Source: Spirochaetota bacterium
GTDB lineage: Bacteria > Spirochaetota > Spirochaetia > Treponematales > UBA12059
Length of the DNA stretch: 54,237 nucleotides
Direction of reading: 5' to 3'
NCBI GenBank assembly: GCA_029548805.1
Contig: JAKPMS010000010.1
Span: forward strand, 1 to 54,237
Shown here: positions 6,874-34,629 of the stretch, piece by piece
Layout of the letters: every line of letters starts with the position of its first letter
How positions within the stretch are numbered: the stretch's first letter is position 1
Made by a program: the position numbers and the translations under genes
Notes under the pieces: generated by a model
Databases searched by the model: none
What the model saw: only the letters and a program-made list of their open reading frames with translations
What the model was told of the DNA's origin: nothing

Positions 6874-6907
6874 AAAAAAAGCCTTCCGCACCCGGGAAGG
6901 CTTTTTT
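6874..6907. terminator. Bidirectional rho-independent terminator between convergent operons
   Basis: AAAAAAA-GCCTTCC-loop-GGAAGGC-TTTTTT, with an A-run and a T-run flanking a 7-bp GC-rich stem. Confidence 0.75.
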
Positions 6908-6929
6908 ATTATCAAGAGAAAAGCAATTT

Positions 6930-7667: not shown

Positions 7668-7676
7668 GGTTTCCCC

Positions 7677-8465
7677 TTATTTGGACTCGCCGGAGCTGCC
7701 CCAAATTTCTTCAATTACCTTTGGATTGGTCAAGGAGTCGCCGTCAAAAAGGGATTCAAAGGTATCGGTAAGAACTTTAAGCTGGTCAAAGTAAAAATAA
7801 ACAGCCCTTTCCATAATACCCGCATCCGCTTTGGCGGGAGCTGCGACAACTTCAGTAGGGCGTGTCCAAATCCTGAACTTTACCAAACTAAGATTTTCCT
7901 TCTTGGGCAAGTACTTTTTGGACTGCGGGATGTTTGAAGGGATGTTTACCCTAAAGTTTTTCCATCCTATATGGTTTAGGTTGCCCATCGGCAATACATG
8001 CACTATACCCATGAAATCGCGTATATAGGCTTCCAGGTAATAGTCATAATTCCCGGACCAAATCCATAAATCCAGCATACGCACTCTGCCCGGCAAAGGT
8101 AGTTCTTTGGGCTCGTAGCTGACATCATCACCGGAGCCGGATTTACTGCCTGGAATAATATCCACCCAGTTGTACTCTTTTCTGTCAAATAAAAAAGCCA
8201 TACCCAGGCTTTTTAAATCCTTGTCCCCCGGGTCTGTTCCAAAAAGGGCAACCGGCCAGGTTTTTGCATATGCCATTTTTGGAAAATCTTTGGTGGCAAA
8301 CTTGCTTCCAATAAGGAACCAAGGCTGTTCTTCCGGTTCATCGAAACTCTGGACTATTATAGACTCCAGGTTTACTGTTTCATCGTCGGCAAAAACAATG
8401 TTCACCGCCAGCATGAAAACGATGACGAAAGACAGGCTGATCGCTTTTACGACGCGCTGTTTCAT
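7677..8465 (-). CDS. flaA: Flagellar filament outer layer protein FlaA paralogue
   Basis: Signal peptide and FlaA-like blocks (SFDEPE..W, GWKNFRVNIP, YFYFDQLKVLTD). An AAGGAG RBS lies 8 nt upstream. Confidence 0.8.
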   Translation of the reverse strand: MKQRVVKAISLSFVIVFMLAVNIVFADDETVNLESIIVQSFDEPEEQPWFLIGSKFATKDFPKMAYAKTWPVALFGTDPGDKDLKSLGMAFLFDRKEYNWVDIIPGSKSGSGDDVSYEPKELPLPGRVRMLDLWIWSGNYDYYLEAYIRDFMGIVHVLPMGNLNHIGWKNFRVNIPSNIPQSKKYLPKKENLSLVKFRIWTRPTEVVAAPAKADAGIMERAVYFYFDQLKVLTDTFESLFDGDSLTNPKVIEEIWGSSGESK

Positions 8466-8521
8466 CAGAACAACTCCTTAATTTTATACCACATTATAAA
8501 AAGTAATAATCCTATTGTGGA

Positions 8522-8550
8522 ATTATATTTTTAAGATCATTCTTTGTCAA
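8522..8550 (-). promoter_or_regulatory. Consensus sigma70-type promoter for the flaA-flaA operon
   Basis: The minus strand reads TTGACA-N17-TATAAT (TTGACAAAGAATGATCTTAAAAATATAAT), about 55 nt upstream of the start codon. Confidence 0.6.
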
Positions 8551-8596
8551 ATAAAATAGGACATTTCAGGCTCCTTGTAATATATCGATGCGGTTT

Positions 8597-9478
8597 TTAT
8601 GGTTTGCGGGCTTTTTTGTTGCCAGTTTGCACGGTTTTCCACTTGGCCTGACTTAAATTGCCGCTGTTTTGCTGGCGCATCCTGTCCAAGTCTATAAGGC
8701 TTTCCTGGATATCCCAACATATATAATACTGGAACAAAGCGTTTTGCGTTGGTTTTGCCAATGGGTATTCCGCAATCAAAAGAGTGTTTTTGTCAAAAGC
8801 GTTGGCAGCCCAATCATCAAGCTCCTGCAGCTCAGCCGATATGTATGCTGCTCTATAGTCGGAATTCTTGATATTTTGTGCGGCTTTTGAATTGTAGCCT
8901 CCGTAAATACGCTCCGTTACCAAACTGGCCCCAGGATTTTCGGATTCAAAAACAGAGCTGAAAAGTTCCGGCGCTGAACTCTGGGAGGCTTTGCCTGAAA
9001 AAATGGCAATGCAAAGAGGGTTTTCATTGTTGTGCTTTGCTTTTTTTATATATGAAGCCATAAGTCTGGCTCCAAGTTCGGCAGCTCCTTCAGAATAGAA
9101 AACAGACGAGAAAAGCCTTTTGTCCGGTTTTGGCTCTTGTGCTGACAAAAGGCAAATAACGGTATTTTCGTCTCTGGATAAAATGGCGGGAATTTCCGCT
9201 GACAGCAAAGGAGACAAAAAAATAGTTTTTGGTGAATGCATTTCTATTATGTCGTACAACTCTTCCTGTGTATTCTCTGATGATAATACAATCACTTTTT
9301 GGGCCACTTTTCTGTATGAATGGTCCGTTCCTGTATCCAGCTTGGCAAAGATGGGGTCAATAATTGCGATGGCATTATTTGAACAGGAGAATAATAAGAA
9401 AAATAAAAGGCTGTACGGGAATAAGTAATTGTTTTTCACAAGGCCTGGCATAATAACCGATTTTTTTTTATACAACAA
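8597..9478 (-). CDS. Hypothetical lipoprotein
   Basis: Hydrophobic N-terminus ending in the lipobox-like LLFSC. No recognisable catalytic motif. Confidence 0.55.
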   Translation of the reverse strand: MLYKKKSVIMPGLVKNNYLFPYSLLFFLLFSCSNNAIAIIDPIFAKLDTGTDHSYRKVAQKVIVLSSENTQEELYDIIEMHSPKTIFLSPLLSAEIPAILSRDENTVICLLSAQEPKPDKRLFSSVFYSEGAAELGARLMASYIKKAKHNNENPLCIAIFSGKASQSSAPELFSSVFESENPGASLVTERIYGGYNSKAAQNIKNSDYRAAYISAELQELDDWAANAFDKNTLLIAEYPLAKPTQNALFQYYICWDIQESLIDLDRMRQQNSGNLSQAKWKTVQTGNKKARKP

Positions 9479-9542
9479 GCCAGAGCATAAGGCTTTTGCC
9501 AGCTGTATAGCGCTTTTGCTTCTTGCCTATTGGCAAATACTA

Positions 9543-9571
9543 TTGACCTTGACCATAAGGGAACCTAGAAT
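9543..9571 (+). promoter_or_regulatory. Candidate sigma70-type promoter of fba
   Basis: TTGACC-N17-TAGAAT, ending 32 nt upstream of the fba start. Confidence 0.45.
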
Positions 9572-9603
9572 TGGTATCACAACAAACAATCAGGGAGAAA
9601 AAT

Positions 9604-10602
9604 ATGACCAGTTACAAGGTTTTAGGATTAACAAACAGTGTAGATTTGTTTAAAAAAGCCATAGCAGGAGCTTATGCCCTGCCTGCTTATAATTTTAACA
9701 ACATGGAGCAGATGCAGGCCATAATCCAGGCCTGTGTAGAAACCAGAAGCCCTGTTATTTTACAGGTATCCTCCGGCGCAAGAAAATACGCCAATGCCAA
9801 TCTGCTCAGAAACATGGCCAGAGGCGCTGTTGAATATGCTGCAGAATTGGGCTTCCCCATTCCGATCGTATTGCATCTTGACCATGGCGACAGCTATGAG
9901 CTTTGTGTCGATTGCATAGAAAACGGATTTTCCAGCGTTATGATAGACGGTTCCCACTTGCCATACGATAAAAACGTAGCTTTGACCAAAAAAGTATGTG
10001 ATTACGCTCACAGTCGTCCGGATTATGTGAGCGTGGAAGGCGAACTGGGTGTATTGGCAGGGGTAGAAGACGATGTATCTTCCGAGCATTCCCATTATAC
10101 CCAGCCGGAAGAAGTGGAAGACTTTGTCAAAAAGACTGGAGTGGATTCGCTTGCAATTTCCATAGGTACCAGTCACGGAAGAAGCAAGTTCAAGCCGGAG
10201 CAATGCAGCAGGGACTCCAATGGGCTGCTTGTTCCGCCTCCGTTGCGTTTTGATATTCTGGAAGAAATTGAAAAAAGGATACCCGGTTTTCCGATAGTGC
10301 TGCATGGTTCATCCAGTGTACCGCAGGAGTATATTGCCATTATTGAAAAGTTTGGAGGCAGGCTGAAAGACTCCATAGGAATACCCGAGGATCAACTCAG
10401 AAAAGCCGCTAAAAGTTCGGTTTGCAAAATAAATATTGATTCGGATGGGCGCCTGGCCATGACAGCCATGATACGCAAAGTTTTTGCGGAACATCCGGAA
10501 GAGTTTGATCCGCGCAAATACCTGGGTCCCGCCAGGGATGAGCTTAAAAAGCTGTATATGCATAAAAACATAGAGGTATTGGGCTCTGCAGGTAAAGCCT
10601 GA
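9604..10602 (+). CDS. fba: Class II fructose-1,6-bisphosphate aldolase
   Basis: VLHLDHGDS and SIGTSHG motifs are present. I prefer the ATG at 9604 (MTSYKVLGL...) because a GGGAG RBS precedes it. Confidence 0.9.
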   Translation: MTSYKVLGLTNSVDLFKKAIAGAYALPAYNFNNMEQMQAIIQACVETRSPVILQVSSGARKYANANLLRNMARGAVEYAAELGFPIPIVLHLDHGDSYELCVDCIENGFSSVMIDGSHLPYDKNVALTKKVCDYAHSRPDYVSVEGELGVLAGVEDDVSSEHSHYTQPEEVEDFVKKTGVDSLAISIGTSHGRSKFKPEQCSRDSNGLLVPPPLRFDILEEIEKRIPGFPIVLHGSSSVPQEYIAIIEKFGGRLKDSIGIPEDQLRKAAKSSVCKINIDSDGRLAMTAMIRKVFAEHPEEFDPRKYLGPARDELKKLYMHKNIEVLGSAGKA

Positions 10603-10611
10603 TATTTTAAG

Positions 10612-10650
10612 GGCATTACCAAGCACTGCGCCTGGTGATGCCTTTTTTTT
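10612..10650. terminator. Bidirectional terminator between fba and rnhA
   Basis: A 10-bp stem (GGCATTACCA / TGGTGATGCC, one G-U pair) is followed by T8. Confidence 0.7.
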
Positions 10651-10658
10651 ATATCAGC

Positions 10659-11135
10659 TCAGTACTGATTGTTGCATGCAGCGTTTTCTGCTGCCGTTTT
10701 TGCCAACTTGTCGCAATACTCGTTCCATTGCTCGCCTGAGTGGCCTTCTACCCAGGTCCATTCCGCGCCTGTTACTGCGGACAGGGCATCCAGCTCTTCC
10801 CATAATTCCCTGTTTTTGACCGGAGTTTTTGCGGAAGTTTTCCAGCCATTTCTTTTCCAGGAGTTTATCCATTTGGTTACTCCGTTTTTTACATATTGGG
10901 AATCTGTCCTGACTTCCATATCAGCTTTTTGTATTTCTCCGGATTTTACAAGCTTTTCAACAGCTTTTAGTCCTTCTATGGCAGCCTTCAATTCCATGCG
11001 ATTGTTTGTGGTATCGGATTCGCAGCCGGAGTTTTCCAAACTGCCTGTACCCGAAATACAAACCCATGCCCAGCCGCCGGGGCCAGGGTTTCCCGAGCAG
11101 GCTCCGTCACAATACAGTATATGCGTTTTTGACAT
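10659..11135 (-). CDS. rnhA: Ribonuclease HI
   Basis: YCDGACSGNPGPGGWA and ...VEGHSGEQWNEYCDKLA motifs are present. I prefer the start at 11135 (MSKTHILY) because a GAGGA RBS precedes it. Confidence 0.9.
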   Translation of the reverse strand: MSKTHILYCDGACSGNPGPGGWAWVCISGTGSLENSGCESDTTNNRMELKAAIEGLKAVEKLVKSGEIQKADMEVRTDSQYVKNGVTKWINSWKRNGWKTSAKTPVKNRELWEELDALSAVTGAEWTWVEGHSGEQWNEYCDKLAKTAAENAACNNQY

Positions 11136-11157
11136 AAAGTATCCTCTATAACGGTTT

Positions 11158-13044
11158 TTAGTTGAGAGCTGATGGCACAAAAACAAGGCTTAGCCATGGT
11201 ATCCAGGTTACAAGTGCCAAAACAGCCAACTGGGCTAGGAAAAACGGAAAAACATCTTTGTAAATACGCATAACCGGCTTGTTAAATGCATAGCTTGCAA
11301 GAAAAAGATTCATGCCTATGGGCGGAGTTAAAAAGCCTATAGACAGGTTGGCAATAAAAATTACCCCAAGATGTACCGGATGGACTCCATACACTGCTCC
11401 CAGGGGTATAACCATGGGAGAAACCACCAGGACCGCAGAAAAAATATCCATAAAACAGCCCACAACCAGCAACGCCAGGTTTAACAATAGAAGGAACATA
11501 AACCTGGAGCTTACTACATTGCTTATCCATTCGGTAAACAATTCCGGCAAACCAGCCATCATGGTATAAAAGGACAGAGCCCTGGCTGCGGCTATTATTA
11601 TTAACGCACCCCCGGCTACCGGTAAGGCTTTGGCTACAGCTCTCATAACTTCTTTTGGGCCAAGGTCCTTGCGGACGGGAGCCTCCAGAAGAATCACATA
11701 AACCAGAATGATGGCTCCGATTTCGGTAATGGTGGCAAATCCGCTCAGATAAAACACCAGTATTATGAATGGAATTATTATTTCTGGCAGGGCCTTCCAG
11801 AGAGCGGCAACGGCAGTCTTGCCGTTAAAAGCGTTTCTTGGAGAGCCGGATTTTATGCTTTTATTTACTCCAAAAGCTGCCATAGCCAAAACAAACATGA
11901 GTCCCGGCAAAATTCCGCCAAGAAACATGTCCCCAATTGTAAAAGCGGAGCTGCCCTGGACTATAAAAGTGGCGTTTATTGCGTAAATTATTACAGCCAT
12001 GCTGGGCGGAAACAATAAACCAATGGAAGAAGAAGCGGTCAAAAAGCCATGACTAAAATCCTCAGAGTAATTGCTGCTTTCCGTCAATACAAGGGACAAT
12101 ATGCCCCCGAGCGCCAATATTGCCACGCCGTTGGCCCCGGTAAAGGTAGTAAAAAAAGCACATACCAGTACAGCGGCAAAGGCTTCTCCTCCAGGCAGCC
12201 AGCTGAACCATTCCCTGAACACTGATACAAGGCGCTTTCCTGCGTCAGACTCGGACAGGACAAAGCCAGCCAATGTAAAAAGCGGAATAGCAGGCATGCT
12301 GTCGTTTCTTAAAAGATTATATGCCTCGCTTGGTATCAGCTCCAAGGCAGAAAAAGCTCCAAGAAACAACAGCATTGCAGAGCCGGAAATGACCGCATAA
12401 AGAGGCAAACCCAAAAAAGCCAGTATTATCAACAAAACAATAATAGGTATTTTTAGGATCAGCATGCTTGCCATAACAGTATCTGAAACCGAACCCAGAA
12501 GGTCGGGATACAGTCCAAAAAAACCGGATATATTCAATATAACTGGGCTGGAAAGGAGCACTGCGGCAATTATGCCAATAATGATGGTCAGAAAAGCTTT
12601 GCTGTCCCTAATATCTTGTACAGTCATAATAAACAGGCCAATGGCCATGGGGCTGGCAAATACTGCTTTGGACAGGTCGAAAATTTTGTCTCCAGGTTCA
12701 AAGCCGTTCAAAAGCAAAGATATGCTGGCAAAAAAAAGACACAAATCAATTGCTATTAGTATTCCGGTCTTTAGTTGGTTCAAAGCCCGTACAAAGCCGG
12801 CTTTGCTAACAGGGCTTTTGCCAAGGACCAGGTGTTTTCCTGTAAGGCTGGCTACAGCTGCGGCTAAAAAGGCAAGGGCAACAAGGCTGTGTTCCTGCAA
12901 CTGTGCAGCACTTGGGATACCTTTCCAGAAGACTCTGGCCAAAACTAAATCCAGAATGGGAACCAGGCTTAAAAAAGCCGCAGAAAGCAGCGCCATAAAA
13001 AAGGCAATATGGTGCAGTTTGTCCTTTTTTTCTGAACTGTTCAT
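11158..13044 (-). CDS. TRAP transporter fused small/large permease (TatQM-like DctQ-DctM fusion)
   Basis: 628-aa polytopic protein. Its start overlaps the stop of the upstream binding-protein gene by 1 nt (TAATG). Confidence 0.85.
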   Translation of the reverse strand: MNSSEKKDKLHHIAFFMALLSAAFLSLVPILDLVLARVFWKGIPSAAQLQEHSLVALAFLAAAVASLTGKHLVLGKSPVSKAGFVRALNQLKTGILIAIDLCLFFASISLLLNGFEPGDKIFDLSKAVFASPMAIGLFIMTVQDIRDSKAFLTIIIGIIAAVLLSSPVILNISGFFGLYPDLLGSVSDTVMASMLILKIPIIVLLIILAFLGLPLYAVISGSAMLLFLGAFSALELIPSEAYNLLRNDSMPAIPLFTLAGFVLSESDAGKRLVSVFREWFSWLPGGEAFAAVLVCAFFTTFTGANGVAILALGGILSLVLTESSNYSEDFSHGFLTASSSIGLLFPPSMAVIIYAINATFIVQGSSAFTIGDMFLGGILPGLMFVLAMAAFGVNKSIKSGSPRNAFNGKTAVAALWKALPEIIIPFIILVFYLSGFATITEIGAIILVYVILLEAPVRKDLGPKEVMRAVAKALPVAGGALIIIAAARALSFYTMMAGLPELFTEWISNVVSSRFMFLLLLNLALLVVGCFMDIFSAVLVVSPMVIPLGAVYGVHPVHLGVIFIANLSIGFLTPPIGMNLFLASYAFNKPVMRIYKDVFPFFLAQLAVLALVTWIPWLSLVFVPSALN

Positions 13045-20585: not shown

Positions 20586-22298
20586 ATGTCAAAAGAAACC
20601 ACTTTTGAGACTCTGGCACTGGAACTAAGCCCGGCAGAAAGAATGGACTTGCTGGACCGGCTTAAAAAAACATGTGTCGTATCCACCGAGCCCATGAATA
20701 AAAACGTTGGCAGGAAGAAAGTACAGATTGATTACAATGCTGTTTTTTTGTCATTGGGTTTTGTTGCCAGATTGCTCATTACTATCAAATCCATTTTCAG
20801 CAGGACGAGCAGGGATGAACTTGTCAAAGGCAAGATCATAAAGGAACTGGTAAAAAGCATTGATACGGACAGCCCCGGACTGATAGAAGGAAAAAGCAAA
20901 AGCCTTTCGGAAGTCTTTTACAGGGAGCTTTACAACTTGCGCACTGCAGCGCGTTATTTTTACGATATCCTTGACAAGACTCTGGAAAAAAACCGCATGG
21001 CCTTTTTTGCATTTCTTGCATCGCTGGAACTGGAAGATATTCATAGCGAACTTGCCAATGAAGCAGATCCGTACAGTTTTGCAGAAATGAACGAAGCTGC
21101 CAGCGATTCAGACATAAGAGTTGCGGTTTATTCGGCAATGGAGCAGGCTTTTGCCAAAATTGATGAAGAGAAACGCAAACATATTTATTACGATGTGCGA
21201 AGCCTGCATATTCTTAAAAAGCTGTCTGGATTTTTGTTTGACAGACTCTTGGGTTCTTTTGAAACCAGCCAGGCAGGTTTAAAAACTGTCCAAATGTACA
21301 GTGTACAGGAGCAGTTAGCCGAGCTATGTTCCATAGTCAGTTCGCTGGACCAGCCGCCATCCCGAAACCTGATGGAAGCCATTATAGGTTTTGCCCTTAA
21401 TGATGAAATCGGAAAAGAGAATTTCAATCTTGACGAGGCCGTGTCAGTAAATATTGCTGATGCGGAAAAGGCGCTGTCGGCAATACGAAACTTCAACGAC
21501 AAAGTCCCTTTGGAGTCCTTGCTCAAAATTGCCCATGATGATCCGGATTGGCAATGTTCCTCCAGTGGAGGGGGAGAAGACTGGTATGCCATTTACAAAA
21601 GCTATTGGAAGGACAGAATTGACAAGCGCTATCACAATCTTGTTTCTGAAAGGCGCCTCAAAGAGCTGGAGTCGGAAATAGAAAAACTGGTAGGCAGCCA
21701 AAAGCAGAGCTGGTTTATAAACCTGTCACAAAGCGGAAGCGAAACAAAAATTCCACTCAGATTGGCAAGTGCATTGTATTTTCTGGAAGCTTTTTATCAT
21801 CATTGTTTTTTGGTAGAACTGAACCGCTCGTTCAAACTGGTATTGCTTGAAGGCGAGTTTTACAGAAGAGATAACCGCCTTGATTTTACAGATGCCTATA
21901 ATGAACTTTTGCAGACCGGAGACAAGCTGAAACGCCTGGATTCCAGATTGGCTGCCAATGGCGAACTGGGTATGGCATATATACAGGCCAAGACTGAACT
22001 CAGTTCGGTATCCAGCAAACAGCGCAAAATTGAAGCAAGCATCAGGGCAGCAGAAAATGAGGCAGAAGCCTTGTTAACCAAATCAACTTTGGCTATAAAA
22101 AAGATGCTGGAAATTCTGGACGGCATTTTGGCAAGGGATATAAGGGGCCGCTTTGACTCTTTGTCCAATCTTGGCCAGATAGAAGGCAAGGCCAACAAGG
22201 ATTTTTTAAAAGGGCTTGAAGCAAGCAGGCTAAAGCTTGACAAAGCCGTGTACCTGATTGCAGAGCTTGTTAAAACTTCCTTGGGCAGCAAAATATGA
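20586..22298 (+). CDS. Hypothetical, largely helical/coiled-coil protein
   Basis: 570-aa ORF, first in a chain of overlapping genes. No motif recognised. Confidence 0.55.
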   Translation: MSKETTFETLALELSPAERMDLLDRLKKTCVVSTEPMNKNVGRKKVQIDYNAVFLSLGFVARLLITIKSIFSRTSRDELVKGKIIKELVKSIDTDSPGLIEGKSKSLSEVFYRELYNLRTAARYFYDILDKTLEKNRMAFFAFLASLELEDIHSELANEADPYSFAEMNEAASDSDIRVAVYSAMEQAFAKIDEEKRKHIYYDVRSLHILKKLSGFLFDRLLGSFETSQAGLKTVQMYSVQEQLAELCSIVSSLDQPPSRNLMEAIIGFALNDEIGKENFNLDEAVSVNIADAEKALSAIRNFNDKVPLESLLKIAHDDPDWQCSSSGGGEDWYAIYKSYWKDRIDKRYHNLVSERRLKELESEIEKLVGSQKQSWFINLSQSGSETKIPLRLASALYFLEAFYHHCFLVELNRSFKLVLLEGEFYRRDNRLDFTDAYNELLQTGDKLKRLDSRLAANGELGMAYIQAKTELSSVSSKQRKIEASIRAAENEAEALLTKSTLAIKKMLEILDGILARDIRGRFDSLSNLGQIEGKANKDFLKGLEASRLKLDKAVYLIAELVKTSLGSKI

Positions 22299-23038
22299 CA
22301 AAAGAAACCAGAGAAGAAAGCCTGGCCGGCAGCCTGGTTATGGGCTTTGGAAGCGCTGAGCCTACAGCGTTTATAAGCCTAGCATCCATGGGCGACATGG
22401 GCTTTGGCAATGAGAAAAACAGGGACAGGCGGCAAAAGTGGCTAAAAAGCCTTGACATTGATCCGGATTTTGCTGCCAGCGTGGACCTGGTGCACTCAAG
22501 AAGAGTAGTAGAAGCAGCTAGCCCCGACTCTTGCCTGGGAGTGGAGGCTGATGGTTTGTGCGCGGCTTACCCTGACAAAAGCGGAGCTACACGCTCCTTG
22601 ATCATAACAGTAGCTGACTGCATGCCCATTTTTATACTGGACCGCAACAGCGGAGCTATAGGCCTTTTGCATTCTGGTTGGGCGGGTACAGGAATTTTGG
22701 GCGAAGCAGCTAGCTTTATGGCCAGGCGTTACGGCACAAAAGCAGCAGATCTTGCTGCCATATTTGGACCATGCATAGGCCCATGCTGTTACATGGTGGA
22801 TGAGGCACGGGCTTCTGTTTTTGAAAACGAGTTTGGCTCTACTGCCGTTGTACGGAGCATGGATAAAACCTTTTTGGACTTGAGGGCTGCCAATAATACA
22901 ATTGCAGACAAGCTGGGCCTGGGCACTGTAATACAAGCACCATTCTGCACTTGTTGCGACGAACGCTTTGGCTCATACAGGCGGCAGGGAGCCGCATCCT
23001 TTACCCGTATGGCTGCCGTGCTGGCTTACAAACAATGA
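22295..23038 (+). CDS. pgeF: YfiH/PgeF (DUF152) family purine nucleoside phosphorylase / peptidoglycan editing factor
   Basis: HSGWAG and C..C....FGSYRR motifs, with an ATGA overlap onto the upstream gene. Confidence 0.8.
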   Translation: MTKETREESLAGSLVMGFGSAEPTAFISLASMGDMGFGNEKNRDRRQKWLKSLDIDPDFAASVDLVHSRRVVEAASPDSCLGVEADGLCAAYPDKSGATRSLIITVADCMPIFILDRNSGAIGLLHSGWAGTGILGEAASFMARRYGTKAADLAAIFGPCIGPCCYMVDEARASVFENEFGSTAVVRSMDKTFLDLRAANNTIADKLGLGTVIQAPFCTCCDERFGSYRRQGAASFTRMAAVLAYKQ

Positions 23039-24330
23039 AGTGTTTAAAGCCTGCTTTTGCGGTTTTGTTGTGTTTGTCAGCGACTGCCCTATATGCAGAA
23101 GAAAAGCCTGCGCTCTATAGCGCTATTCCTGACAGGATTATTATCAGCGAGCGCTCGGATTTCTCCAAATATGAAGGCGGCCGTTATATTGGGCATGTAT
23201 ATCGCGAAGCCAGGGTTGACATAAGGACGGTATCTGTCCTCGAAAACAGCATTGCTTACGAAGGGGACGCAATTGTATATGAAGAAACCCTTCGTGACCA
23301 AAGAAGCGCTGCCAAACTGGTGGACGATGTGCTGCCCATAGCTTTTACTATAGACAGCATTGGTAGCATGGATTTCAGTATAGATAAAGCCTATCCCATT
23401 TTGCGATCCATGCCCAAGCCTGTTCCCAAGGATGCAGTACCCGGAGACCGTTGGACCGGAGACGGAATTGTGGTTGTAAGGCCCAGGCCCGGCTTCCCGG
23501 CTACGAGGATAGCCGTACTAGCCGAATACCAATATCTTGGCCCGTCCAGCTATGCAGGGAAGGCAGCCCAAGCCATAAAGGCCCGTTATGCCATTCGTTA
23601 CAAAGGCAATGACAGGCTTGGAGATCTTGACATGAAATCTGCCAGCGGAGGCAGGACAGCAGACTTTCTGCTGGATGCGGAAAACGGCTCCGCCTTGTTT
23701 GTAAGAGAAAGCATTGACGAAAGCTATTCTTATACAGATGTACCTGACATAAGGCTTAAGGGCTTTATACTCCACTTTTACAGTAACAGCCTGCCCCAAG
23801 ATCAATTGAGGATAGCCAGACTTATAGATCCCTTGACTCAAAAGGACATGCTTGGCCTGGAAGGCAGCCTGCCAGGCCAAACGGATTTGCCCAATTCCAT
23901 AACTGTTCCCGAGCCGCCAACAGGAAAAGACCATTTTGTACCAGAGCCTTCGGAAGCCCTGCCCTTTGAGCTGGCAAGAGGCAACAAAGGCCTCGTGCTT
24001 CTGCTTTTTGACCTAAGGTTTATAGCTGACAGCGAGCAGCTATTGTCATCAGAAAAAGGCAGGCTGGACTCAATTGCAGATGCGTTAAAAAAGCTGCCTG
24101 ACAAAAACTTTCTTGTAGAAGGGCATACTGCAGAGCTTGGCAGGGCTGCCGGGCAGCTGGAACTGTCCAGACAAAGGGCCAAAAAAATTGTGGACGAATT
24201 GATAGCCCGGGGTATAGACCCAGGCCGGCTTGTTTACAGAGGCCTTGGAGCTGATAAGCCCATAGCCTCAAATGAAAGCGAAGAAGGAAAAGCACGTAAT
24301 CGCAGAGTAGAAATAACCATCCTGGACTAA
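23035..24330 (+). CDS. OmpA-domain protein
   Basis: I prefer the start at 23035 (MKCLKPAFAVLL..., ATGA overlap). The C-terminus carries an OmpA-like peptidoglycan-binding domain (FLVEGHT...NRRVEITIL). Confidence 0.75.
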   Translation: MKCLKPAFAVLLCLSATALYAEEKPALYSAIPDRIIISERSDFSKYEGGRYIGHVYREARVDIRTVSVLENSIAYEGDAIVYEETLRDQRSAAKLVDDVLPIAFTIDSIGSMDFSIDKAYPILRSMPKPVPKDAVPGDRWTGDGIVVVRPRPGFPATRIAVLAEYQYLGPSSYAGKAAQAIKARYAIRYKGNDRLGDLDMKSASGGRTADFLLDAENGSALFVRESIDESYSYTDVPDIRLKGFILHFYSNSLPQDQLRIARLIDPLTQKDMLGLEGSLPGQTDLPNSITVPEPPTGKDHFVPEPSEALPFELARGNKGLVLLLFDLRFIADSEQLLSSEKGRLDSIADALKKLPDKNFLVEGHTAELGRAAGQLELSRQRAKKIVDELIARGIDPGRLVYRGLGADKPIASNESEEGKARNRRVEITILD

Positions 24331-24372: not shown

Positions 24373-24984
24373 ATGACCAGAAAAGAATATCTGCGTTACC
24401 TTTTCAGAAGCCCTTTTGGCTTTGTTTTAATGGTTTTGTCTTTGCTTGCCGGCTTTTTTGGCGGAATAAAGCTTGGCTTTTTAGCTGCTTTTGCATCTGG
24501 CTTTGGCATGTTTGCATTTGTTTTTATACTGGCTTCCGTTTCGGGCTTGGGTTCCCGCTTGGCTGTAAAAGAACAGGAAGCCGGGCACTGGGTAGAAACA
24601 AAAAAGGCTCTTCTTAAAACAAAAGAGGCAAGAAAGAAACTGGCCAGCCTGCGTTTTCCCGATCCGGATGTTCAGGAACTTTTGCAATTGGCCGCCATGA
24701 AGGGCTTGTCCTACCTGTCAGCCTGCGAAAGCGCAAAAACAAGAGAGCCGCGCGCCTGCAACGCTTTGTCAGAATGTCTTGAAATAAGCGATATGTATTT
24801 GCATGAGCTGGACGGCAGCTCGACAGAAAAACGCTTTAATATTGCCGACCAGGATCCTTTTCTGGATGCAAAGCATAGAACCCTGAATGCCCTGAAAGAA
24901 CGCATAAAGATAATAGACGAGGCCATTACTTTGTTGCGGGGAGGGCTCCCGTCCATGCGGATGGAAATAAAGGAAACTTTATGA
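24373..24984 (+). CDS. Hypothetical membrane protein (two N-terminal TM helices plus a helical soluble domain)
   Basis: 203-aa ORF whose stop overlaps the next start (ATGA). There is no strong RBS at 24373, so the start is uncertain. Confidence 0.6.
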   Translation: MTRKEYLRYLFRSPFGFVLMVLSLLAGFFGGIKLGFLAAFASGFGMFAFVFILASVSGLGSRLAVKEQEAGHWVETKKALLKTKEARKKLASLRFPDPDVQELLQLAAMKGLSYLSACESAKTREPRACNALSECLEISDMYLHELDGSSTEKRFNIADQDPFLDAKHRTLNALKERIKIIDEAITLLRGGLPSMRMEIKETL

Positions 24985-26714
24985 AAGGCAAAAAACATAA
25001 GCATTTCAGCCAGAACGCTGCCGCTGCCATATTTGTTTTGGCCATGCTGTTTCTGGCCAAAAATACAGCTGCAGCCCTGTCAACCGATCTTGAATCCGTT
25101 GACATAACTGTCAACCTGAGAAAAGACGCCAAGGCAGAAGTTTACTACAGCATCAAATGGCGCACCCTGTCCGGTACCATGAGCGGCTTTTATTTTGAGG
25201 GAGAGGCCTTTAAGCCTGTGTGGAATCCTTCCGCTTGCTACGCTGATCTTGATAATGGCAGTCGTGTTCCGCTTGAAATTATAGAAATGAAAGGCAACAA
25301 CAAGTATGACATAATACTTGCAGGCGGAAAGCGTTTTTCGGGCAGTGCATACTATTTTCTGAATTATGCCGGAGACTTTTCGGAAAACGGGCTGATTGGA
25401 TACACAAAGCACCCCGAGCATGGAGAGTTGGAGTTTTTTGACTGGGCGCCTGTTGAATGGGATGAGGAGCTTGACTACAGGGCTGTGCGCATTGTCTTTC
25501 CAGTAAAAGTATCCGGAGAAGTTTTAAGCAAAGAAGAAAAAGCAAATTTGCCATTGCGCACAGAAGACTGGGTAAACGCAGACAACAAAATTGATTACTA
25601 TGGCTCCCCTGGCAGTGACGGCTATTATTTGACCCTGCTTTTTTACCAGGACAAACCCGCTGCTTATGCCAGCCAAAGACTGCTTTTTTATTTTCCCCGC
25701 GGCTTTTTGGGCTTTGATGCAGAGCTGTATGAATACAGCTTTTCTTATTCCGAAGATGATATTCCTGACGACGAATACTTGGCTAACAATAGCTATTCCA
25801 ACGATTACGATAAAAAACCAGATGTTAAAGCGGCCAGGGCATGGGCAGCAAAACCCGCGGCAGCCTTTGCAGTTTTTACTGCAGTAATTGTCTTTTCCAT
25901 CCTGCTGTATCTCAGGCGTTTCAGACAGCACCAAAAAAACATAGAAGCTGTCAAGGCTATAGCTTGGGCAGGGGATTCCTGGATCCCGCCAAAACTGTAC
26001 ACGGGAAGCTATCAGGTGGAAGGTAAAATAGCAGAAAACCTGCACCCTGTAGAAGCAGCTATACTCCTGGAATTGTCCTTTCCTAGAATTGTTTCCATAA
26101 TGATGGAAGGCTTGAGCGCCCAGGGGATTATTCAAATGGAGCGAGAAGACCCTCTTAAAATTTCCATTGTTTCCGAGAAAAAAGCAGTGGACCCAATGGA
26201 AGAACGGTTTTTGGCCTCTTTCGACTCAAACGGAGAAGTCATGCCGGGCCTCTTGGCAGACTTTTTTGACCAGCTGATAGCTGAGCTGCAGGAAAAAATA
26301 TGGGATTGCGATATAGAAGCCACCAAGGCATATTACAAAAACAAGCTTTTGAGCAGCCGGGAAGAAGCCGAAAAAACCATGAGCATGGAAAACGATGAAC
26401 TTCGGGCTTATTACAGCAGAAACAGAGACCGTATTTACTGGCATAGTTATAATATAATAACGGCCAATCCGCAGCGCTTTGGCGGAATCTCCTTGCCAAA
26501 AGGCATGCAGGGCTCTTTTACCGACTTCATGCGCTCCGCATCCTGTTATTCCGGCTGTTTTTCTCCTGCAAAGGCGGTGTCCACCGTGGATGCTTGCCAC
26601 TCGGCCTGCCATAATGCCTGCCACGATGCTTGCCATTCGGCCTGTCATTCCGCTTGCCACTCGGCCTGCCATTCCGCTTGCCACTCGGCCTGTGTTTCCG
26701 GGAGTTCGCACTGA
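24981..26714 (+). CDS. Bitopic membrane protein with a DUF2207-like ectodomain and a cytoplasmic C-terminal CXXX-repeat (C-H-x-A) tail
   Basis: Signal/anchor at aa 14-33 and a TM at about aa 292-311, followed by RRFRQHQK (positive-inside). The LHPVEAAILLE...GLSAQGII block resembles DUF2207. The C-terminus reads CYSGCFSP...ACHSACHNACHDACHSACHSACHSACHSACHSACVSGSSH. Confidence 0.75.
   Translation: MKGKKHKHFSQNAAAAIFVLAMLFLAKNTAAALSTDLESVDITVNLRKDAKAEVYYSIKWRTLSGTMSGFYFEGEAFKPVWNPSACYADLDNGSRVPLEIIEMKGNNKYDIILAGGKRFSGSAYYFLNYAGDFSENGLIGYTKHPEHGELEFFDWAPVEWDEELDYRAVRIVFPVKVSGEVLSKEEKANLPLRTEDWVNADNKIDYYGSPGSDGYYLTLLFYQDKPAAYASQRLLFYFPRGFLGFDAELYEYSFSYSEDDIPDDEYLANNSYSNDYDKKPDVKAARAWAAKPAAAFAVFTAVIVFSILLYLRRFRQHQKNIEAVKAIAWAGDSWIPPKLYTGSYQVEGKIAENLHPVEAAILLELSFPRIVSIMMEGLSAQGIIQMEREDPLKISIVSEKKAVDPMEERFLASFDSNGEVMPGLLADFFDQLIAELQEKIWDCDIEATKAYYKNKLLSSREEAEKTMSMENDELRAYYSRNRDRIYWHSYNIITANPQRFGGISLPKGMQGSFTDFMRSASCYSGCFSPAKAVSTVDACHSACHNACHDACHSACHSACHSACHSACHSACVSGSSH
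26595..26702 (+). repeat. Nine tandem 12-nt coding repeats (TGY-CAY-NNN-GCN) with a 24-nt higher-order unit
   Basis: Read directly: units start at 26595, 26607, ... 26691. TGCCACTCGGCC alternates with TGCCATTCCGCT, and the last unit is degenerate (TGTGTTTCCGGG). Confidence 0.95.
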
Positions 26715-28060
26715 TGTCTGCTGAATTGAAAGATAAACTGGACAGTCTGGACTGGATATACTCCTTCTGGAACAGCTTGTCTCCCTATGCCTATGCAAGG
26801 GCAGAAGACGATGTGGTTATTTTGCCTCCCAACCTGGTATATAAAACCAACCGTAGCGGCGTGCAAATACTGGACTTCTTGTCCAAAGGCGGCAGGCTGA
26901 AGGATATACCGGGTTTTGATTACCAAAAAGCCTGTCAGGTTGAAAGCTTTTTCCTGTCCCTTAAAGCAGCATACGAAGGCGACTCTTCCGGTCTTGAAAA
27001 AGTAAAGTACGATTTTTGTTTTACAAAGCTTCCTGTCCTTGGAGAAATAGCGCTGACCTATCGCTGCAACAACCGTTGCCGTTTCTGTTATGCCGGCTGC
27101 GGAGATGATGAACTCAATTACTGCAATATAAAAGCAAATGAGTGCCCTGAGCTTGATACAGATGGCTTTAAAAAAATAATAGATGTTTTTAAAAACGAAG
27201 CCAAAATTCCGTTTTTCTCATTTACTGGCGGCGAACCTTTGTTAAGAACTGATCTAGAAGAACTGGCAGCTTATGCATGCTCTTTGGGCTTAAGGGTAAA
27301 TTTGGTCAGCAATGGCAGACTTGCAAACCCGGAACGAGCTGCTTCTATCTTTGCTTCCGGCATAAAAACAGCCCAGGTAAGCCTGGAAGCTCCAACGGCA
27401 GAATTGCATGACTATTTATGTGATGCTCCCGGAGCTTTTGACGATACCGTAGCCGGTATAAAAGCCATGCTGGACGCAGGCATAGCTGTACAGACCAATT
27501 CCACCCTCACCAGCGCCAACCGGGCTGCATTGCTGGATTTGCCATCCTTTGTGGCCAGCCTGGGCGTCAGGCGTATTTCCATGAACCTTTTTATTCCGGT
27601 GGGCAGCGGGGCTTCTGAGCAAAAGCTTGTAGTGCCCTATAAAGAAGCAGGCAGCTTTATTGACAAGGCAAGACAGAAGGCAATGCAGGCGGGGCTTGAG
27701 TTTTTCTGGTATTCGCCCATTCCCATGTGCATTTACAACCCTGTAGCCAGGGGGCTTGGAAACAAAAGCTGCGCTGCCTGCGACGGGCTATTGTCTGTGG
27801 CACCGGACGGCGGGCTGTTGCCTTGTTCTTCCTGGCCTGAACCAGTAGGCAATATATTAAAGGACGGATTTACAAAACTATGGTTTTCTGAAAAGGCTTC
27901 CTGGTTCAAGAACAAGCTGTATGCGCCGGAGCCTTGCAAAAGCTGTTCTGCGTTCAGCGCCTGCCAGGCCGCCTGCCCCCTGTACTGGAACAGCATGGGC
28001 TGCGCGGAACTTAAAGACAAAAAAGCCCGGAAAAACAAGTGGCTTGACACAGCAGTATGA
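26714..28060 (+). CDS. Radical SAM/SPASM-domain enzyme with an N-terminal PqqD/RRE-like region (peptide-maturase architecture)
   Basis: I prefer the start at 26714 (MSAELKDKLD), which overlaps the upstream stop as TGATG. CX3CX2C is CNNRCRFC at 27065-27088. The C-terminus has CAACDGLLSVAPDGGLLPC plus CKSCSAFSACQAAC (CX2CX5CX3C). Confidence 0.88.
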   Translation: MSAELKDKLDSLDWIYSFWNSLSPYAYARAEDDVVILPPNLVYKTNRSGVQILDFLSKGGRLKDIPGFDYQKACQVESFFLSLKAAYEGDSSGLEKVKYDFCFTKLPVLGEIALTYRCNNRCRFCYAGCGDDELNYCNIKANECPELDTDGFKKIIDVFKNEAKIPFFSFTGGEPLLRTDLEELAAYACSLGLRVNLVSNGRLANPERAASIFASGIKTAQVSLEAPTAELHDYLCDAPGAFDDTVAGIKAMLDAGIAVQTNSTLTSANRAALLDLPSFVASLGVRRISMNLFIPVGSGASEQKLVVPYKEAGSFIDKARQKAMQAGLEFFWYSPIPMCIYNPVARGLGNKSCAACDGLLSVAPDGGLLPCSSWPEPVGNILKDGFTKLWFSEKASWFKNKLYAPEPCKSCSAFSACQAACPLYWNSMGCAELKDKKARKNKWLDTAV

Positions 28061-28075: not shown

Positions 28076-28975
28076 GTGAATGATGTTTTTAAGTTTTTAA
28101 AACTTGGGCTTGTCCCCAGACTTGCATTTGCCGTTCTCCTTTATTGTGTAGCGCTTGTTGCGGAGATAATGACCGGCAATATGCTGCCCGGCTTGCCTTT
28201 CATTTTTGCCGCATGGTTTTTACTGGCCTTAAAACCGGCCAGCAACAAGCCAAAAGATATAGGCCTGGAAGAATGGCGGCCCGTAAGTGACGGAGAAGTA
28301 AACCGTATATCGGACAGTCTCCTAAGGTCCCGCAAACTTGGAAGATCTGGCAAGTCCAAAACGGCAGCTAGTGTTTTTCTTGTTGTTCTGTTGTTGTTTT
28401 TTTCTTTTGTGCTTACTGTTTCAAGAAACCCTGCCGGACCCGTTTTGTCCAAGCTGGCTTTTTTTGCAGTGCCTGGGTTGTTTTTTGGCAAAATTCGTGT
28501 TCATACACCCTTTGAATTGTCCAAAAAAATGCCCCGCATCCAGACTCTTTTGTCCCAGCCTTTAGGCAAAAACTACAGCTTTACTCCTTACCTGCGTTTT
28601 GACAAGGATACCGAGCAAAGGGACATTCCGGAAGACATAAGGCTGATGCTGGAAGCCAGGCAAAAACAGCAAGACTTTATCGGTGTTCAGTTTCAAATTT
28701 CCATCAACAATGGCGCAAACGGGCCGGTTCCGTACATGTACGCGGTGGTGCTTACCAAAGGCAGCAAAGGCACCAGTTACCAGTACTTTTCAAGGATGAA
28801 AACCAAAGGCTTTGTGCTGGAAGCAAGCGGGGGTTCAGAGTATGGTACGGTAGTTATCAGACAGAATACCGGAGGCCAGGGCTACCATACGACAGACATG
28901 GATTGTATAAGGCTGTTTGACCTTGTAATGGGGGGCTTGAAGGAGCTCGAACCAGGCAGTAAAGCCACAGCTTGA
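28076..28975 (+). CDS. Hypothetical polytopic membrane protein with a C-terminal soluble domain
   Basis: GTG start with AAGGAGG 7 nt upstream and a 15-nt gap after the rSAM gene. About four hydrophobic helices are followed by a ~150-aa soluble region. No motif recognised. Confidence 0.65.
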   Translation: MNDVFKFLKLGLVPRLAFAVLLYCVALVAEIMTGNMLPGLPFIFAAWFLLALKPASNKPKDIGLEEWRPVSDGEVNRISDSLLRSRKLGRSGKSKTAASVFLVVLLLFFSFVLTVSRNPAGPVLSKLAFFAVPGLFFGKIRVHTPFELSKKMPRIQTLLSQPLGKNYSFTPYLRFDKDTEQRDIPEDIRLMLEARQKQQDFIGVQFQISINNGANGPVPYMYAVVLTKGSKGTSYQYFSRMKTKGFVLEASGGSEYGTVVIRQNTGGQGYHTTDMDCIRLFDLVMGGLKELEPGSKATA

Positions 28976-32799: not shown

Positions 32800-34629
32800 T
32801 CAGCGCTCTCCAAGCAGACTTTTAAGTTCCTGAATATCCTTGACCAGCCTTGAGCGGTCCAGGTTTTGGAAGCGCTTTGGCACCATTTCCTTGCTTGTAC
32901 ACTCAATTACTGCTACCAGATTTTGAAGCTCAATTTCGTGCGGGTATGCTGGAGGAACAAAGTCGTTCATGGTTTCCTCAAGGTCCTCCCTGGTCACAAA
33001 GGTTCTGTTATCCATGGTTGCCCTTAGCTTGGCTCTTATCAGTACTGCTTCCAGGTCGGCCCCGGAAAACTCATGCTTGAAGCGTTTGAACAGTTCAGAA
33101 ATCGGAAATTTCCTGATGGAAAGATCCAGTTTTCTGGTAAGTACCTCAAAAAGCTCTTCCTTGTCCTTTTCGCTATCCGGATAGAAAAGAGCCAGATGCT
33201 CTTCGGCACGCCCTTGTCGTTTCATGTCTATAGGAAGCAAGTCTGGGCGGCAGGTTATTAGAAACCATATAATTTTGCCGCGATATTCGGTATTTCCCAT
33301 AAAGCTTGCCAGTTGGGCAAATATCCGGTTTGAGGTACCGGAGTCGCCATCCTGATCCCTGTCGCCAAGAAATGCATCAGCTTCATCTATCATTACAGCC
33401 ACTGGAGCCATGGCTTTAAGGATGGTAAGCACTTTCTCCAGATTGGATTCGGTAACCCCCTGCCATTTTGACCTGAAGTTTTTGAATTTGACCATGGGTA
33501 CGCCTATTTCGCCCGCAAAGGCGGATACCATAAAGCTTTTACCGGTACCAACCGGACCGGCTATCAGATAACCCATGGGTAACACATCCAGGCGGCCTTG
33601 CTTCAATGCTCGTGCGGCATACCTGAAGCGTTTTTTTACAAAATCATGACCGGACACAAAAGACAAGTTATGCTCTGTATCCAGGAATTCCAACAAGCCT
33701 CCGGCTTCCCCTTCAATTATTTCCCGCTTTTTGGCTTTGAGATAGTCCATGGAAATGGCTTTGTCTTCTTGCCAGCTTTCGGCTGCCAGCCTGTTAAGGT
33801 TTACCAGGTTAAGTCCTGATGTTATTGCTCCCACAGAGCCTGGACGAAGCCCTTTTTCCAGAAGCAGGGTTCCTTGGCTTTCTATAAATTCCAGAAAGGA
33901 GCTTCTTACTGTTTCATCGGGTATGGGAATTTCCAGTTTTATTGTAGACGGGCTGGCTACAATGCGAGGATTAAGATCCGATAGGTTTTCCGACAAAAGC
34001 AGGATGGAAACGTCTCCCTTGGTAAAAATCGGATCATGAGACCAGCGGTTCAGGGTCACAAAGGAGTAGCGGTCAGATTCGTCCATCTTGGACAAATCCG
34101 AAGCAGGAAGGACTGTTTCAGCATAATCTATTATAAGCACTATGCGTTTTTTTTCGGGGATATTCAAAAGGAAATACCGTTCCAGCATTTTAAAGGCTGT
34201 AAGCGGGTCGCTTGACAACAAGTCTTCTTCATCAAGGTCTGGGAAACGTTCCCTCATCATTTTAAGATACGCTTTGCGCATTTCCGGCAGGCAAAAAGAA
34301 ATACCGCTGGAGCGATCCCAAAAAATAATTATATCCCTGTTGCCGAACAATACTTCAGAAATGTAATCTTGTATTTTTACAAAGGTGAATTCGCCCTCAT
34401 TCATTTTGTGCGGCAAAAAATCCCTTATATTTCCATGAACAATGTATAAATTGGCCGTTTTTGAGCAATATTTGTATGAAAGCTCTTGGGCCCATGCAGG
34501 CAAGATTTTTATAAAAGGCAGGTTTTTTACTATTAACTGGTCTTTCATTTTCTCCTCTGGAACATAGTATTGGTTTAATTGAAACCAGGCAATAAGCTTT
34601 TGCTTTTCCTGTAAAAAGTCAGGACCCAT
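32800..34629 (-). CDS. AAA+ family ATPase with a ~330-aa N-terminal region of unknown function
   Basis: Walker A GPVGTGKS, Walker B VAVMIDEADAF and a classic-clade AAA module lie in the C-terminal half. Confidence 0.8.
   Translation of the reverse strand: MGPDFLQEKQKLIAWFQLNQYYVPEEKMKDQLIVKNLPFIKILPAWAQELSYKYCSKTANLYIVHGNIRDFLPHKMNEGEFTFVKIQDYISEVLFGNRDIIIFWDRSSGISFCLPEMRKAYLKMMRERFPDLDEEDLLSSDPLTAFKMLERYFLLNIPEKKRIVLIIDYAETVLPASDLSKMDESDRYSFVTLNRWSHDPIFTKGDVSILLLSENLSDLNPRIVASPSTIKLEIPIPDETVRSSFLEFIESQGTLLLEKGLRPGSVGAITSGLNLVNLNRLAAESWQEDKAISMDYLKAKKREIIEGEAGGLLEFLDTEHNLSFVSGHDFVKKRFRYAARALKQGRLDVLPMGYLIAGPVGTGKSFMVSAFAGEIGVPMVKFKNFRSKWQGVTESNLEKVLTILKAMAPVAVMIDEADAFLGDRDQDGDSGTSNRIFAQLASFMGNTEYRGKIIWFLITCRPDLLPIDMKRQGRAEEHLALFYPDSEKDKEELFEVLTRKLDLSIRKFPISELFKRFKHEFSGADLEAVLIRAKLRATMDNRTFVTREDLEETMNDFVPPAYPHEIELQNLVAVIECTSKEMVPKRFQNLDRSRLVKDIQELKSLLGER

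Follow-up and report, generated by a model that had tools for sequence, protein, structure and literature searches.

The window analyzed here, a stretch of 54,237 nucleotides from a Spirochaetota bacterium (contig JAKPMS010000010.1 of assembly GCA_029548805.1), carries a cassette of four consecutive genes on the forward strand, denoted A to D, in which a radical S-adenosylmethionine (SAM) enzyme, C, is encoded immediately downstream of a membrane protein, B, that ends in a regular Cys-His repeat. The first gene, A (positions 24373 to 24984), encodes a protein of 203 amino acids (aa) that, according to its hydropathy profile, has two transmembrane helices near the N terminus and is helical toward the C terminus; the stop of A and the start of B overlap over 4 nucleotides (nt). 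B (24981 to 26714) encodes a DUF2207-like membrane protein of 577 aa, as judged from its open reading frame (ORF), its hydropathy, and the Pfam matches of its orthologs. The ORF of C extends from the ATG at 26714 to the TGA at 28058 to 28060 and encodes 448 aa. D, the last gene of the cassette (28076 to 28975), encodes a 299-aa membrane protein in which hydropathy delineates three or more hydrophobic segments and, at the C terminus, a soluble domain of some 170 aa. An earlier note on this DNA had taken the repeat-tailed product of B as the presumed substrate of C, and it is the relationship between these two proteins that is analyzed below.

The cassette was compared across 84 loci, four of them found by exact-protein look-up and 80 taken from a scan of one genome per species, along with three loci that were added for very distant relatives. 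The scan identified 207 stretches encoding a relative, and, judged from the encoded proteins, the system is present in more than 200 bacterial species. The carriers are mostly Spirochaetota but also include metagenome-assembled genomes (MAGs) labeled as Myxococcota, rumen "Proteobacteria," and Holophagaceae, as well as a single bin assigned to Bacteroidaceae. Conservation is limited to A, B, C, and D, with flanks that differ between loci: A lies directly upstream of B in 53 of the 84 loci (tblastn), B is upstream of C in 81, and D is downstream of C in 75. The cassette contains no conserved protease or exporter, no conserved metal transporter or chaperone, and no sulfatase or amine dehydrogenase genes. 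Neither A nor D showed a match in Pfam, NCBIfam, PHROG, or PADLOC, and A, B, and D had none in PADLOC, PHROGs, or PDB. In D, a motif N-x-P-x-D-x-G-x-E follows the second hydrophobic segment, and the C-terminal domain contains several conserved stretches (TP.L.FD, PED, G.Q.Q, VPY.Y, and RQ.T...GYHT) and no conserved Cys. One locus from a rumen MAG (L063, positions 4250 to 11171) encompasses B-C-D followed by a second pair, B'-D', the tail of which reads (ACHx)9-VSGGGR, with only one radical SAM gene. Thus, B and D travel as a pair, and in this locus one enzyme may serve two tails in trans.

The repeat tail of B and its junction with C

B consists of a signal or anchor segment (residues 13 to 35), an ectodomain, one transmembrane helix (approximately residues 289 to 314), and a C-terminal part comprising some 260 aa. 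Basic residues follow the transmembrane helix, and hydropathy, combined with the Lys/Arg counts on the flanks, suggests that the C-terminal part and the tail are cytoplasmic. B of the window has no Pfam match at E ≤ 10. However, an ortholog that is 44% identical to it (P0125) matches DUF2207 (PF09972) in the ectodomain with 31 bits, above the gathering threshold of 24.4; two other orthologs remain under this threshold (P0126, 22.3 bits, and P0122, 18.7 bits), and two partial homologs of B carry the NCBI name DUF2207. A protein search with B as the query yielded only 11 matches, probably because repeat words dominated the selection of candidates, and the orthologs were therefore taken from the fetched loci.

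The tail (26592 to 26711, forward strand), delimited by its sequence, conservation, and codon entropy, is composed of the units ACHS, ACHN, and ACHD, five further ACHS units, and the ending ACVSGSSH, so that nine Cys recur with a period of 4 and form eight Cys-His dyads. The repeat pattern GCNTGYCAYNNNGCNTGYCAY has 7 matches, compared to 0 in 100 shuffles. The ORF directly upstream of C ends in a near-identical tail in 80 of the 84 loci; among the remaining four, three have no match to B on the stretch, and one (L018) covers only the end of the tail. The tail is also found in two of the very distant relatives (L085 and L086), in which the N-terminal domains of C are just 22 to 33% identical, and, in 81 of 87 related loci from several phyla, it is near-identical, including cases where the proteins share only 25 to 30% identity. 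The number of Cys in the tail is 9, but three loci have 8, one has 10, and L085 has 11. The fourth residues that are specific to each unit (S, N, D, S, S, and so on) and the ending ACVSGGxH are conserved as well, and the His and Ala of the units are as invariant as the Cys. An unstable DNA repeat of recent expansion was rejected as an explanation of the tail, since conservation across phyla extends to both the copy number and the unit-specific residues. A deviating case is P0125, the B ortholog mentioned above, which is encoded on a 2.5-kb contig and has only four A-C-x-x units before VSG; this short tail may be a repeat that collapsed in short-read assembly rather than a real feature. Upstream of the repeat, at a distance of about 10 residues, lies a pre-tail motif, FMRSASCYSGCF (26526 to 26561, forward strand; consensus FMRSxxC[FY]SGC[FY]), which is conserved in nearly all loci and absent in L057 and in the distant L085 and L086, and is a candidate recognition sequence.

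The repeat pattern of the tail could be that of a metal- or Fe-S-binding module, for instance, a helix lined with Cys and His that serves as a store or relay for Fe-S clusters, Cu, Zn, or Ni, with C either making no covalent change to the tail or assisting in the assembly or insertion of a metallocofactor; the tail would then be a scaffold and not a cross-linked peptide. Nine Cys and eight adjacent His in a strict period of 4, both invariant in very distant orthologs, would fit this possibility, and a copy number that is nearly fixed at 8 to 11 is the pattern expected of defined metal sites; furthermore, thioether chemistry leaves the invariance of the His unexplained, and the product would stay on a protein of the membrane that is accompanied by two conserved membrane proteins. 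Nevertheless, we consider a metal module unlikely: metal-binding tails need no dedicated, coupled radical SAM/SPASM enzyme with a domain of the peptide-recognition type, the nearest structural relatives of C are modifiers of peptides or proteins, and a metal transporter or chaperone is not among the conserved genes of the cassette.

The junction between B and C (26700 to 26716, forward strand) comprises the sequence GGGAG at 26700 to 26704, the TGA stop of B at 26712 to 26714, and the ATG start of C at 26714 to 26716, so that, in the pentanucleotide TGATG (26712 to 26716), the stop and the start have one base in common. This sharing of a nucleotide, which had been pointed out in the earlier note, is an instance of a conserved arrangement: among the 79 junctions analyzed, 61 have a 4-nt overlap (TTGA/ATGA) and 12 have the 1-nt overlap (TGATG), that is, stop and start overlap in 73, and the other 6 have a gap of 0 to 3 nt. 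By this arrangement, B and C are translationally coupled. The "stoichiometric co-production" of enzyme and substrate that the earlier note derived from the shared nucleotide over-reads the coupling, which does not imply it. The Shine-Dalgarno sequence of C, GGGAG, is located 9 nt upstream of the ATG, within the VSG codons of B. In related loci, too, the Shine-Dalgarno sequence of C (GGGAG or GGAGG) falls in the conserved Val-Ser-Gly-Gly codons of B, and the conservation of the last residues of the tail may partly reflect the ribosome-binding site of C.

In the list of ORFs, C is preceded by a 28-aa extension starting from a TTG at 26630, which the earlier note had dismissed as an artifact of the repeat being open in a second frame, and three lines of evidence bear this out. 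First, the extension runs in the +1 frame of the tail of B, and it is the frame of B on which strong purifying selection acts: the 57 different DNA sequences of the tail translate into no more than 23 protein sequences, and the entropy in this frame is 0.20 at the first, 0.17 at the second, and 1.14 at the third codon position. Second, of 78 loci, 40 have a stop in the reading frame of C at most 125 nt upstream of the junction, inside the part that encodes the tail. Third, the conservation of C among its homologs starts only at approximately residue 12. The latter observation, and all statements on invariance in C that follow, rest on an alignment (A1) of 49 of the homologs identified by protein search. 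The 476-aa ORF from the TTG was rejected on these grounds. The openness of the repeat in other frames also gives rise to spurious ORFs at 26479 to 26724 (forward strand), 26226 to 26798 (reverse strand), and 26645 to 26926 (reverse strand). Public gene calls of C homologs (P0011, P0016, P0026, P0068, P0093, and P0116) begin inside the upstream repeat (MPFGLPLGLRLR...), and hence the start artifact has propagated in databases.

Domains of the radical SAM enzyme

The protein search with C retrieved more than 100 full-length homologs with identities of 54 to 96%, nearly all of them from Spirochaetota. The radical SAM core of C (approximately residues 108 to 330; 27035 to 27703, forward strand) was delimited by a Pfam match, by invariant columns, and by a structural model in which the predicted local distance difference test (pLDDT) score is mostly above 90. 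The Pfam family Radical_SAM (PF04055) matches residues 114 to 262 (E = 2.4e-22; 80.3 bits versus a gathering threshold of 29.5). The motif CNNRCRFC is located at 27065 to 27088, where the earlier note had read it as the SAM cluster motif of a radical SAM enzyme, and its three Cys, C118, C122, and C125 (CX3CX2C), are invariant, as is the TGGEP at residues 171 to 175, the SAM-binding glycine-rich (GGE) motif; position, Pfam match, and invariance all agree with that identification. An additional invariant Cys, C129 (27098 to 27100), lies three residues past the SAM motif (CRFCYAGC), which extends the pattern to CX3CX2CX3C. The insert after C129 is highly variable in length among the homologs and frequently contains more Cys.

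The AlphaFold model of full-length C has a mean pLDDT of 86.9 and contains alternating beta and alpha elements with a pLDDT above 90; together with Foldseek matches to many radical SAM structures, this fits a partial TIM barrel. The best structural match is SkfB (E = 7.8e-17), a maturase of a peptide that is made by ribosomes and modified after translation (RiPP); SuiB, likewise a RiPP maturase and among the best matches, was aligned over 449 to 465 columns, that is, over the full length, and further matches include anSME, PqqE, TigE, and ChlB. In the hydropathy analysis, C has no hydrophobic segment, and by this measure it is a cytoplasmic protein. The PADLOC matches of C represent only a generic similarity to viperin, and an anti-phage defense system was rejected.

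Among the curated NCBIfam families, the top scores of C are those of AhbD (121 bits versus a cut-off of 500) and NirJ2 (112 versus 500), followed by GeoRSP (94.5 versus 400), StsB (82 versus 625), PqqE (81 versus 381), MftC (80 versus 265), ACGX (TIGR04340; 73 versus 400), HxsC (62 versus 268), AlbA (56 versus 850), and PapB (53 versus 340), so that C is below the cut-off of every curated family. The order of these scores could be taken to mean that C is a small-molecule or cofactor enzyme of the AhbD/NirJ heme type, with the adjacent tail being either a heme-type attachment site or a coincidence. Overlapping C-H-S-A-C-H units read CX3CH, similar to variant heme c attachment motifs. We regard this possibility as highly improbable. 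The two scores are only a quarter of the 500-bit cut-offs; the AhbD match is limited to residues 114 to 308, that is, to the core, and the NirJ2 match likewise starts only at residue 114, whereas C has a PqqD-like domain at its N terminus (see below). Furthermore, the tail is predicted to be cytoplasmic, whereas cytochrome c maturation takes place outside the cytoplasm, and adjacency across about 80 loci in several phyla rules out coincidence. The assignment of C to AhbD/NirJ was therefore rejected. Membership in a subgroup that acts on small molecules, which the earlier note had named as an outcome that would speak against its reading, was not found, because no NCBIfam equivalog comes near its cut-off. 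The profile and structure comparisons instead support placing C among the radical SAM/SPASM proteins that have the architecture of peptide or protein modifiers, with no assignment to a small-molecule family.

The SPASM domain (residues 339 to 425; 27728 to 27988, forward strand) was delimited by the Pfam family PF13186, which matches residues 353 to 411 (E = 3.2e-8; 34.2 bits versus a gathering threshold of 21.5), by invariant columns, and by alignment to solved enzymes. The sequence KSCAACDGLLSVAPDGGLLPC corresponds to residues 351 to 371, and CKSCSAFSACQAAC spans C408, C411, C417, and C421, which form the CX2CX5CX3C motif. The invariant residues of this region are C339, C353-x12-G366-x4-C371, and C408-x2-C411-x5-C417-x3-C421. 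When aligned to CteB, anSME, and TigE, C353 and C371 fall on the hairpin Cys of these enzymes, and C408, C411, C417, and C421 fall on their CX2CX5CX3C; BtrN was also among the solved enzymes the cluster-binding motifs of which were aligned to C. Thus, the C-terminal CX2CX5CX3C that the earlier note had pointed out is present and invariant. Its description of the domain as a full seven-Cys SPASM holds for the count, because the upstream C339 brings the number of invariant Cys to seven, but not for the composition: C356 is variable, being replaced by Ala or Met in many homologs, and the canonical last Cys is absent. No conserved Cys is found past C421 in the homologs, C430 is Tyr or another residue in most of them, and E432 is invariant. 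Two auxiliary Fe-S clusters are plausible on the basis of these alignments. Judged from the alignments to anSME and CteB, C339 may complete the predicted auxiliary cluster I, and the predicted cluster II would be bound by three Cys and a further, fourth ligand that is not assigned to a Cys.

The alignment of C339 is of relevance to another possibility, namely, that C acts on the tail through chemistry other than thioether formation, such as His-centered cross-links (a triceptide-type cyclophane on H-S-A or a Cys-S-imidazole bond), oxidation of Cys to formylglycine as by anSME, or epimerization. In anSME, an additional Cys completes the ligation of auxiliary cluster I; if C339 indeed aligns with it, C would share this trait with an enzyme that is among both its structural and its sequence matches and acts on full-length proteins; His and Ala match Cys in invariance; and a weak NCBIfam similarity (62 to 68 bits) links C to HxsC and HxsC4, which are His-Xaa-Ser enzymes. 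All these matches, however, represent generic superfamily similarity, far under the family cut-offs, the anSME target motif C/S-x-P/A-x-R is absent from the tail, and the C-beta of Ala is a poor site of hydrogen abstraction for a cyclophane. For these reasons, we find such non-thioether chemistry rather improbable.

The N-terminal domain of C (residues 1 to 100; 26714 to 27013, forward strand) was characterized using AlphaFold, hhalign, and the weak PqqD matches of relatives. In both AlphaFold models, secondary structure assignment with DSSP yielded helices at residues 3 to 11 and 14 to 22, beta strands at 27 to 29, 34 to 37, and 41 to 44, an alpha helix at 47 to 57, a turn at 61 to 64, and an alpha helix at 70 to 87. 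In these models, the order of the elements, beta-beta-beta-alpha-turn-alpha after two helices, resembles that of PqqD-type recognition elements, in which three strands and three helices make up a winged helix; the model of the isolated domain has a mean pLDDT of 76.6. Direct searches did not detect this relationship: residues 1 to 109 have no Pfam or NCBIfam match, even at E ≤ 10, a PDB sequence search with a narrow family profile of the domain yielded nothing relevant, and a Foldseek search with the isolated model gave no significant match, the best being the ToxR winged helix (E = 2.2). An HMMER profile of the domain, when compared to 1.84 billion representative proteins, had 122 matches, all within its own family.

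More distant comparisons point to PqqD. Weak matches to Pfam PqqD (PF05402; E ≤ 0.1) were found for 12 of 40 distant relatives, and one relative (P0210) scores 22.5 bits versus a gathering threshold of 23.4. A broader alignment of the N-terminal family (A4), when searched against PDB, produced sub-threshold matches that include PqqD (3g2b) and TfuB1, a recognition protein for lasso peptides. In an hhalign comparison with a reference alignment of genuine PqqD, consisting of proteins that are so named by NCBI and carry PF05402, A4 reached a probability of 80.6% (P = 1.3e-5) with 54 columns in register, including EDDVVILPPNLVYKTNRSGVQILDFLSKGG; the narrow family alignment gave P = 4.9e-4, and two unrelated control comparisons gave P values of 0.24 and 0.36. 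In addition, SuiB, the full-length structural match of C, itself bears a recognition domain of the PqqD type. Most probably, then, the N-terminal domain of C represents a diverged recognition element of the PqqD-like kind, in which the second helix is shortened and two helices are added at the N terminus, a call that rests on profile-profile and transitive evidence because the protein of the window has no direct PqqD match. The suggestion of the earlier note that the first ∼95 aa are a PqqD-type RiPP recognition element (RRE) is thereby retained at the level of remote homology, and not at that of direct Pfam or Foldseek similarity.

Proposed modification of the tail

The near-universal adjacency of the tail gene and C, in 80 of the 84 loci and in L085 and L086, makes it very likely that the tail of B is the substrate of C, as presumed in the earlier note; an adjacency that holds for about 80 loci from several phyla is not a coincidence. 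C is cytoplasmic, the tail appears to be so as well, the two genes are coupled, and the N-terminal domain of C occurs only with the tail. On these grounds, it is probable that C, guided by its recognition domain, modifies the tail of B by installing multiple Cys-based cross-links and that the product stays on B.

The following sequence of events is proposed. The recognition domain of C would dock onto the C-terminal region of B, C would reductively cleave SAM, and the resulting 5'-deoxyadenosyl radical would abstract one hydrogen per repeat unit. C would then install a series of intramolecular cross-links using the invariant Cys of the tail; by precedent, thioether links of the sactionine or ranthionine type would be the most likely. 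RRE-containing radical SAM/SPASM enzymes, namely, CteB, SkfB, AlbA, and PapB, as well as QhpD, make Cys thioethers; the targets of PapB are CX3D units in tandem, and that of QhpD is a subunit of a protein, whereas in the short tandem repeats on which TvgB and TigE act, each unit is modified. The product would not be released from B, given that the cassette includes neither a protease nor an exporter, and the modified B would function in a membrane assembly with its partners A and D. What the comparisons establish are the domains of C, its conserved motifs, the coupling of the two genes, and the near-universal company of the tail; the identity of the tail as the substrate, the function of the N-terminal domain, how many clusters C holds, which reaction it performs, and what the system does for the cell are inferred. 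By analogy with these precedents, thioether formation specifically is a tentative assignment, with a chance of being correct that is about even at best.

Several observations weigh against this scheme. The invariance of the His is not explained by simple thioether chemistry, and in some units of L085, the fourth position of the repeat is Gly or Ala, so that a side-chain acceptor at this position is not universal; together with the invariance of the Ala, these points leave room for other chemistry, including Cys-His or His-centered cross-links, and for metal binding. The auxiliary cluster I of the sactisynthase CteB has an open coordination site, in contrast to that of C, which may be fully ligated by Cys through C339, and the predicted auxiliary cluster II lacks the usual fourth Cys. 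C has no curated family assignment, with all NCBIfam scores far under their cut-offs, and its N-terminal domain escapes the direct Pfam, NCBIfam, and Foldseek searches described above. Finally, instead of a leader-core peptide, C would have as its substrate the tail of a membrane protein of 577 aa. A short leader-core precursor accompanied by a protease or exporter, as in a RiPP cluster, is not present in the cassette, and the term "RiPP" applies to the system only by analogy, given the size and nature of the substrate and the lack of a conserved protease or exporter.

A more far-reaching possibility, to which we assign a low but appreciable probability, is that C converts the (Ala-Cys-His-x)x9 tail into a new protein-anchored cofactor, either a ladder of Cys/His cross-links or a chain of metal or Fe-S sites, which would endow the A/B/D complex with a redox, metal-handling, or sensing function. 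If true, this would represent the first function for a DUF2207-type protein, along with a new class of protein-derived cofactor.

Neighboring genes and comparison with known systems

Outside the cassette, three genes upstream of A (20586 to 24330) are syntenic with it in 22 to 25 of the 84 loci, mainly those from Spirochaetota: a DUF5312-like gene (20586 to 22298), a Cu-oxidase_4/PgeF-like gene (22295 to 23038), and an OmpA-domain gene (22951 to 24330). For the OmpA-domain gene, the listed TTG probably places the start too far upstream; a start at the Met of MKCLKPAFAVLL..., at about 23035, would share a few bases with the stop of the preceding gene. An AAA ATPase gene (32800 to 34629, reverse strand) often follows the cassette closely, in the opposite orientation, and its product is 79 to 86% identical in 10 related loci, a much stronger conservation than that of the cassette genes (50 to 70% for C). 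The only RNA family found in the window is a tRNA-Glu (anticodon ttc; 50705 to 50777).

Literature searches on ACGX, CXXX repeats, and DUF2207, each in connection with radical SAM enzymes, and on the tail sequence itself retrieved no relevant paper and no description of this enzyme/tail system. With neither a curated family nor a paper found, the enzyme/tail pair looks like an undescribed system of protein-tail modification. Radical SAM/SPASM maturases are a main source of new peptide chemistry, and new enzyme-substrate pairs have tended to reveal new cross-links. The pair described here is unusually well defined, with one enzyme family that has a private recognition domain coupled to one tail that is little changed across Spirochaetota, Myxococcota, and others.

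The closest known counterparts of C are the RRE-fused maturases SkfB, CteB, SuiB, AlbA, PapB, and TigE, which have the same domain order (PqqD-like, radical SAM, and SPASM or twitch) and are the best structural and the best PDB profile matches of C; in the case of CteB, the cluster Cys align with C353, C371, C408, C411, C417, and C421. Several of these maturases act on Cys-rich or tandem-repeat cores. C differs from them in that its recognition domain is very divergent, with a short second alpha helix and two extra helices, and in that it lacks the last SPASM Cys and has the extra invariant C129 and C339. Furthermore, its presumed substrate is the tail of a large membrane protein, with no protease or exporter encoded in the cassette.

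With respect to the tail, the only NCBIfam match of B is to TIGR04117 (11.6 bits versus a cut-off of 50; E = 0.23). TIGR04117, a Cys-Xaa-Xaa-Xaa repeat family, and ACGX, the target of the TIGR04340 enzyme, are targets predicted by Haft in which Cys likewise recur at every fourth residue, beside a radical SAM/SPASM enzyme, and the A-C-H-S of the B tail shares the A-C-x-x frame with A-C-G-X, as the family name is spelled. Thus, a four-residue Cys period beside such an enzyme is a known predicted theme. However, both members of the pair fall far short of these families, the tail with respect to TIGR04117 and C, at 73 bits versus 400, with respect to TIGR04340. Moreover, the TIGR04117 and ACGX targets are short peptides of about 100 aa rather than DUF2207 membrane proteins.

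With DUF2207 (PF09972), the resemblance lies in the ectodomain of B, which matches the N-terminal domain of this family in orthologs and is below detection in B of the window. To our knowledge, ordinary DUF2207 genes have neither a Cys-His repeat tail nor a radical SAM gene coupled to them, and we know of no function of DUF2207. The system described here could provide the first functional handle on DUF2207 proteins.

In its logic, the C/B pair appears to be close to anSME (the AtsB family) and QhpD, SPASM enzymes that modify a full-length protein or subunit that stays functional. anSME aligns with C over the SPASM motifs, a similarity at the superfamily level only; it lacks a recognition domain, and its target is one Cys or Ser within C/S-x-P/A-x-R. 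QhpD makes several Cys thioethers in one protein. Given that the tail is part of a large membrane protein without a conserved exporting or cleaving partner, the system points to the post-translational maturation of a cellular protein, as in the case of anSME and QhpD, rather than to the production of an antibiotic peptide.

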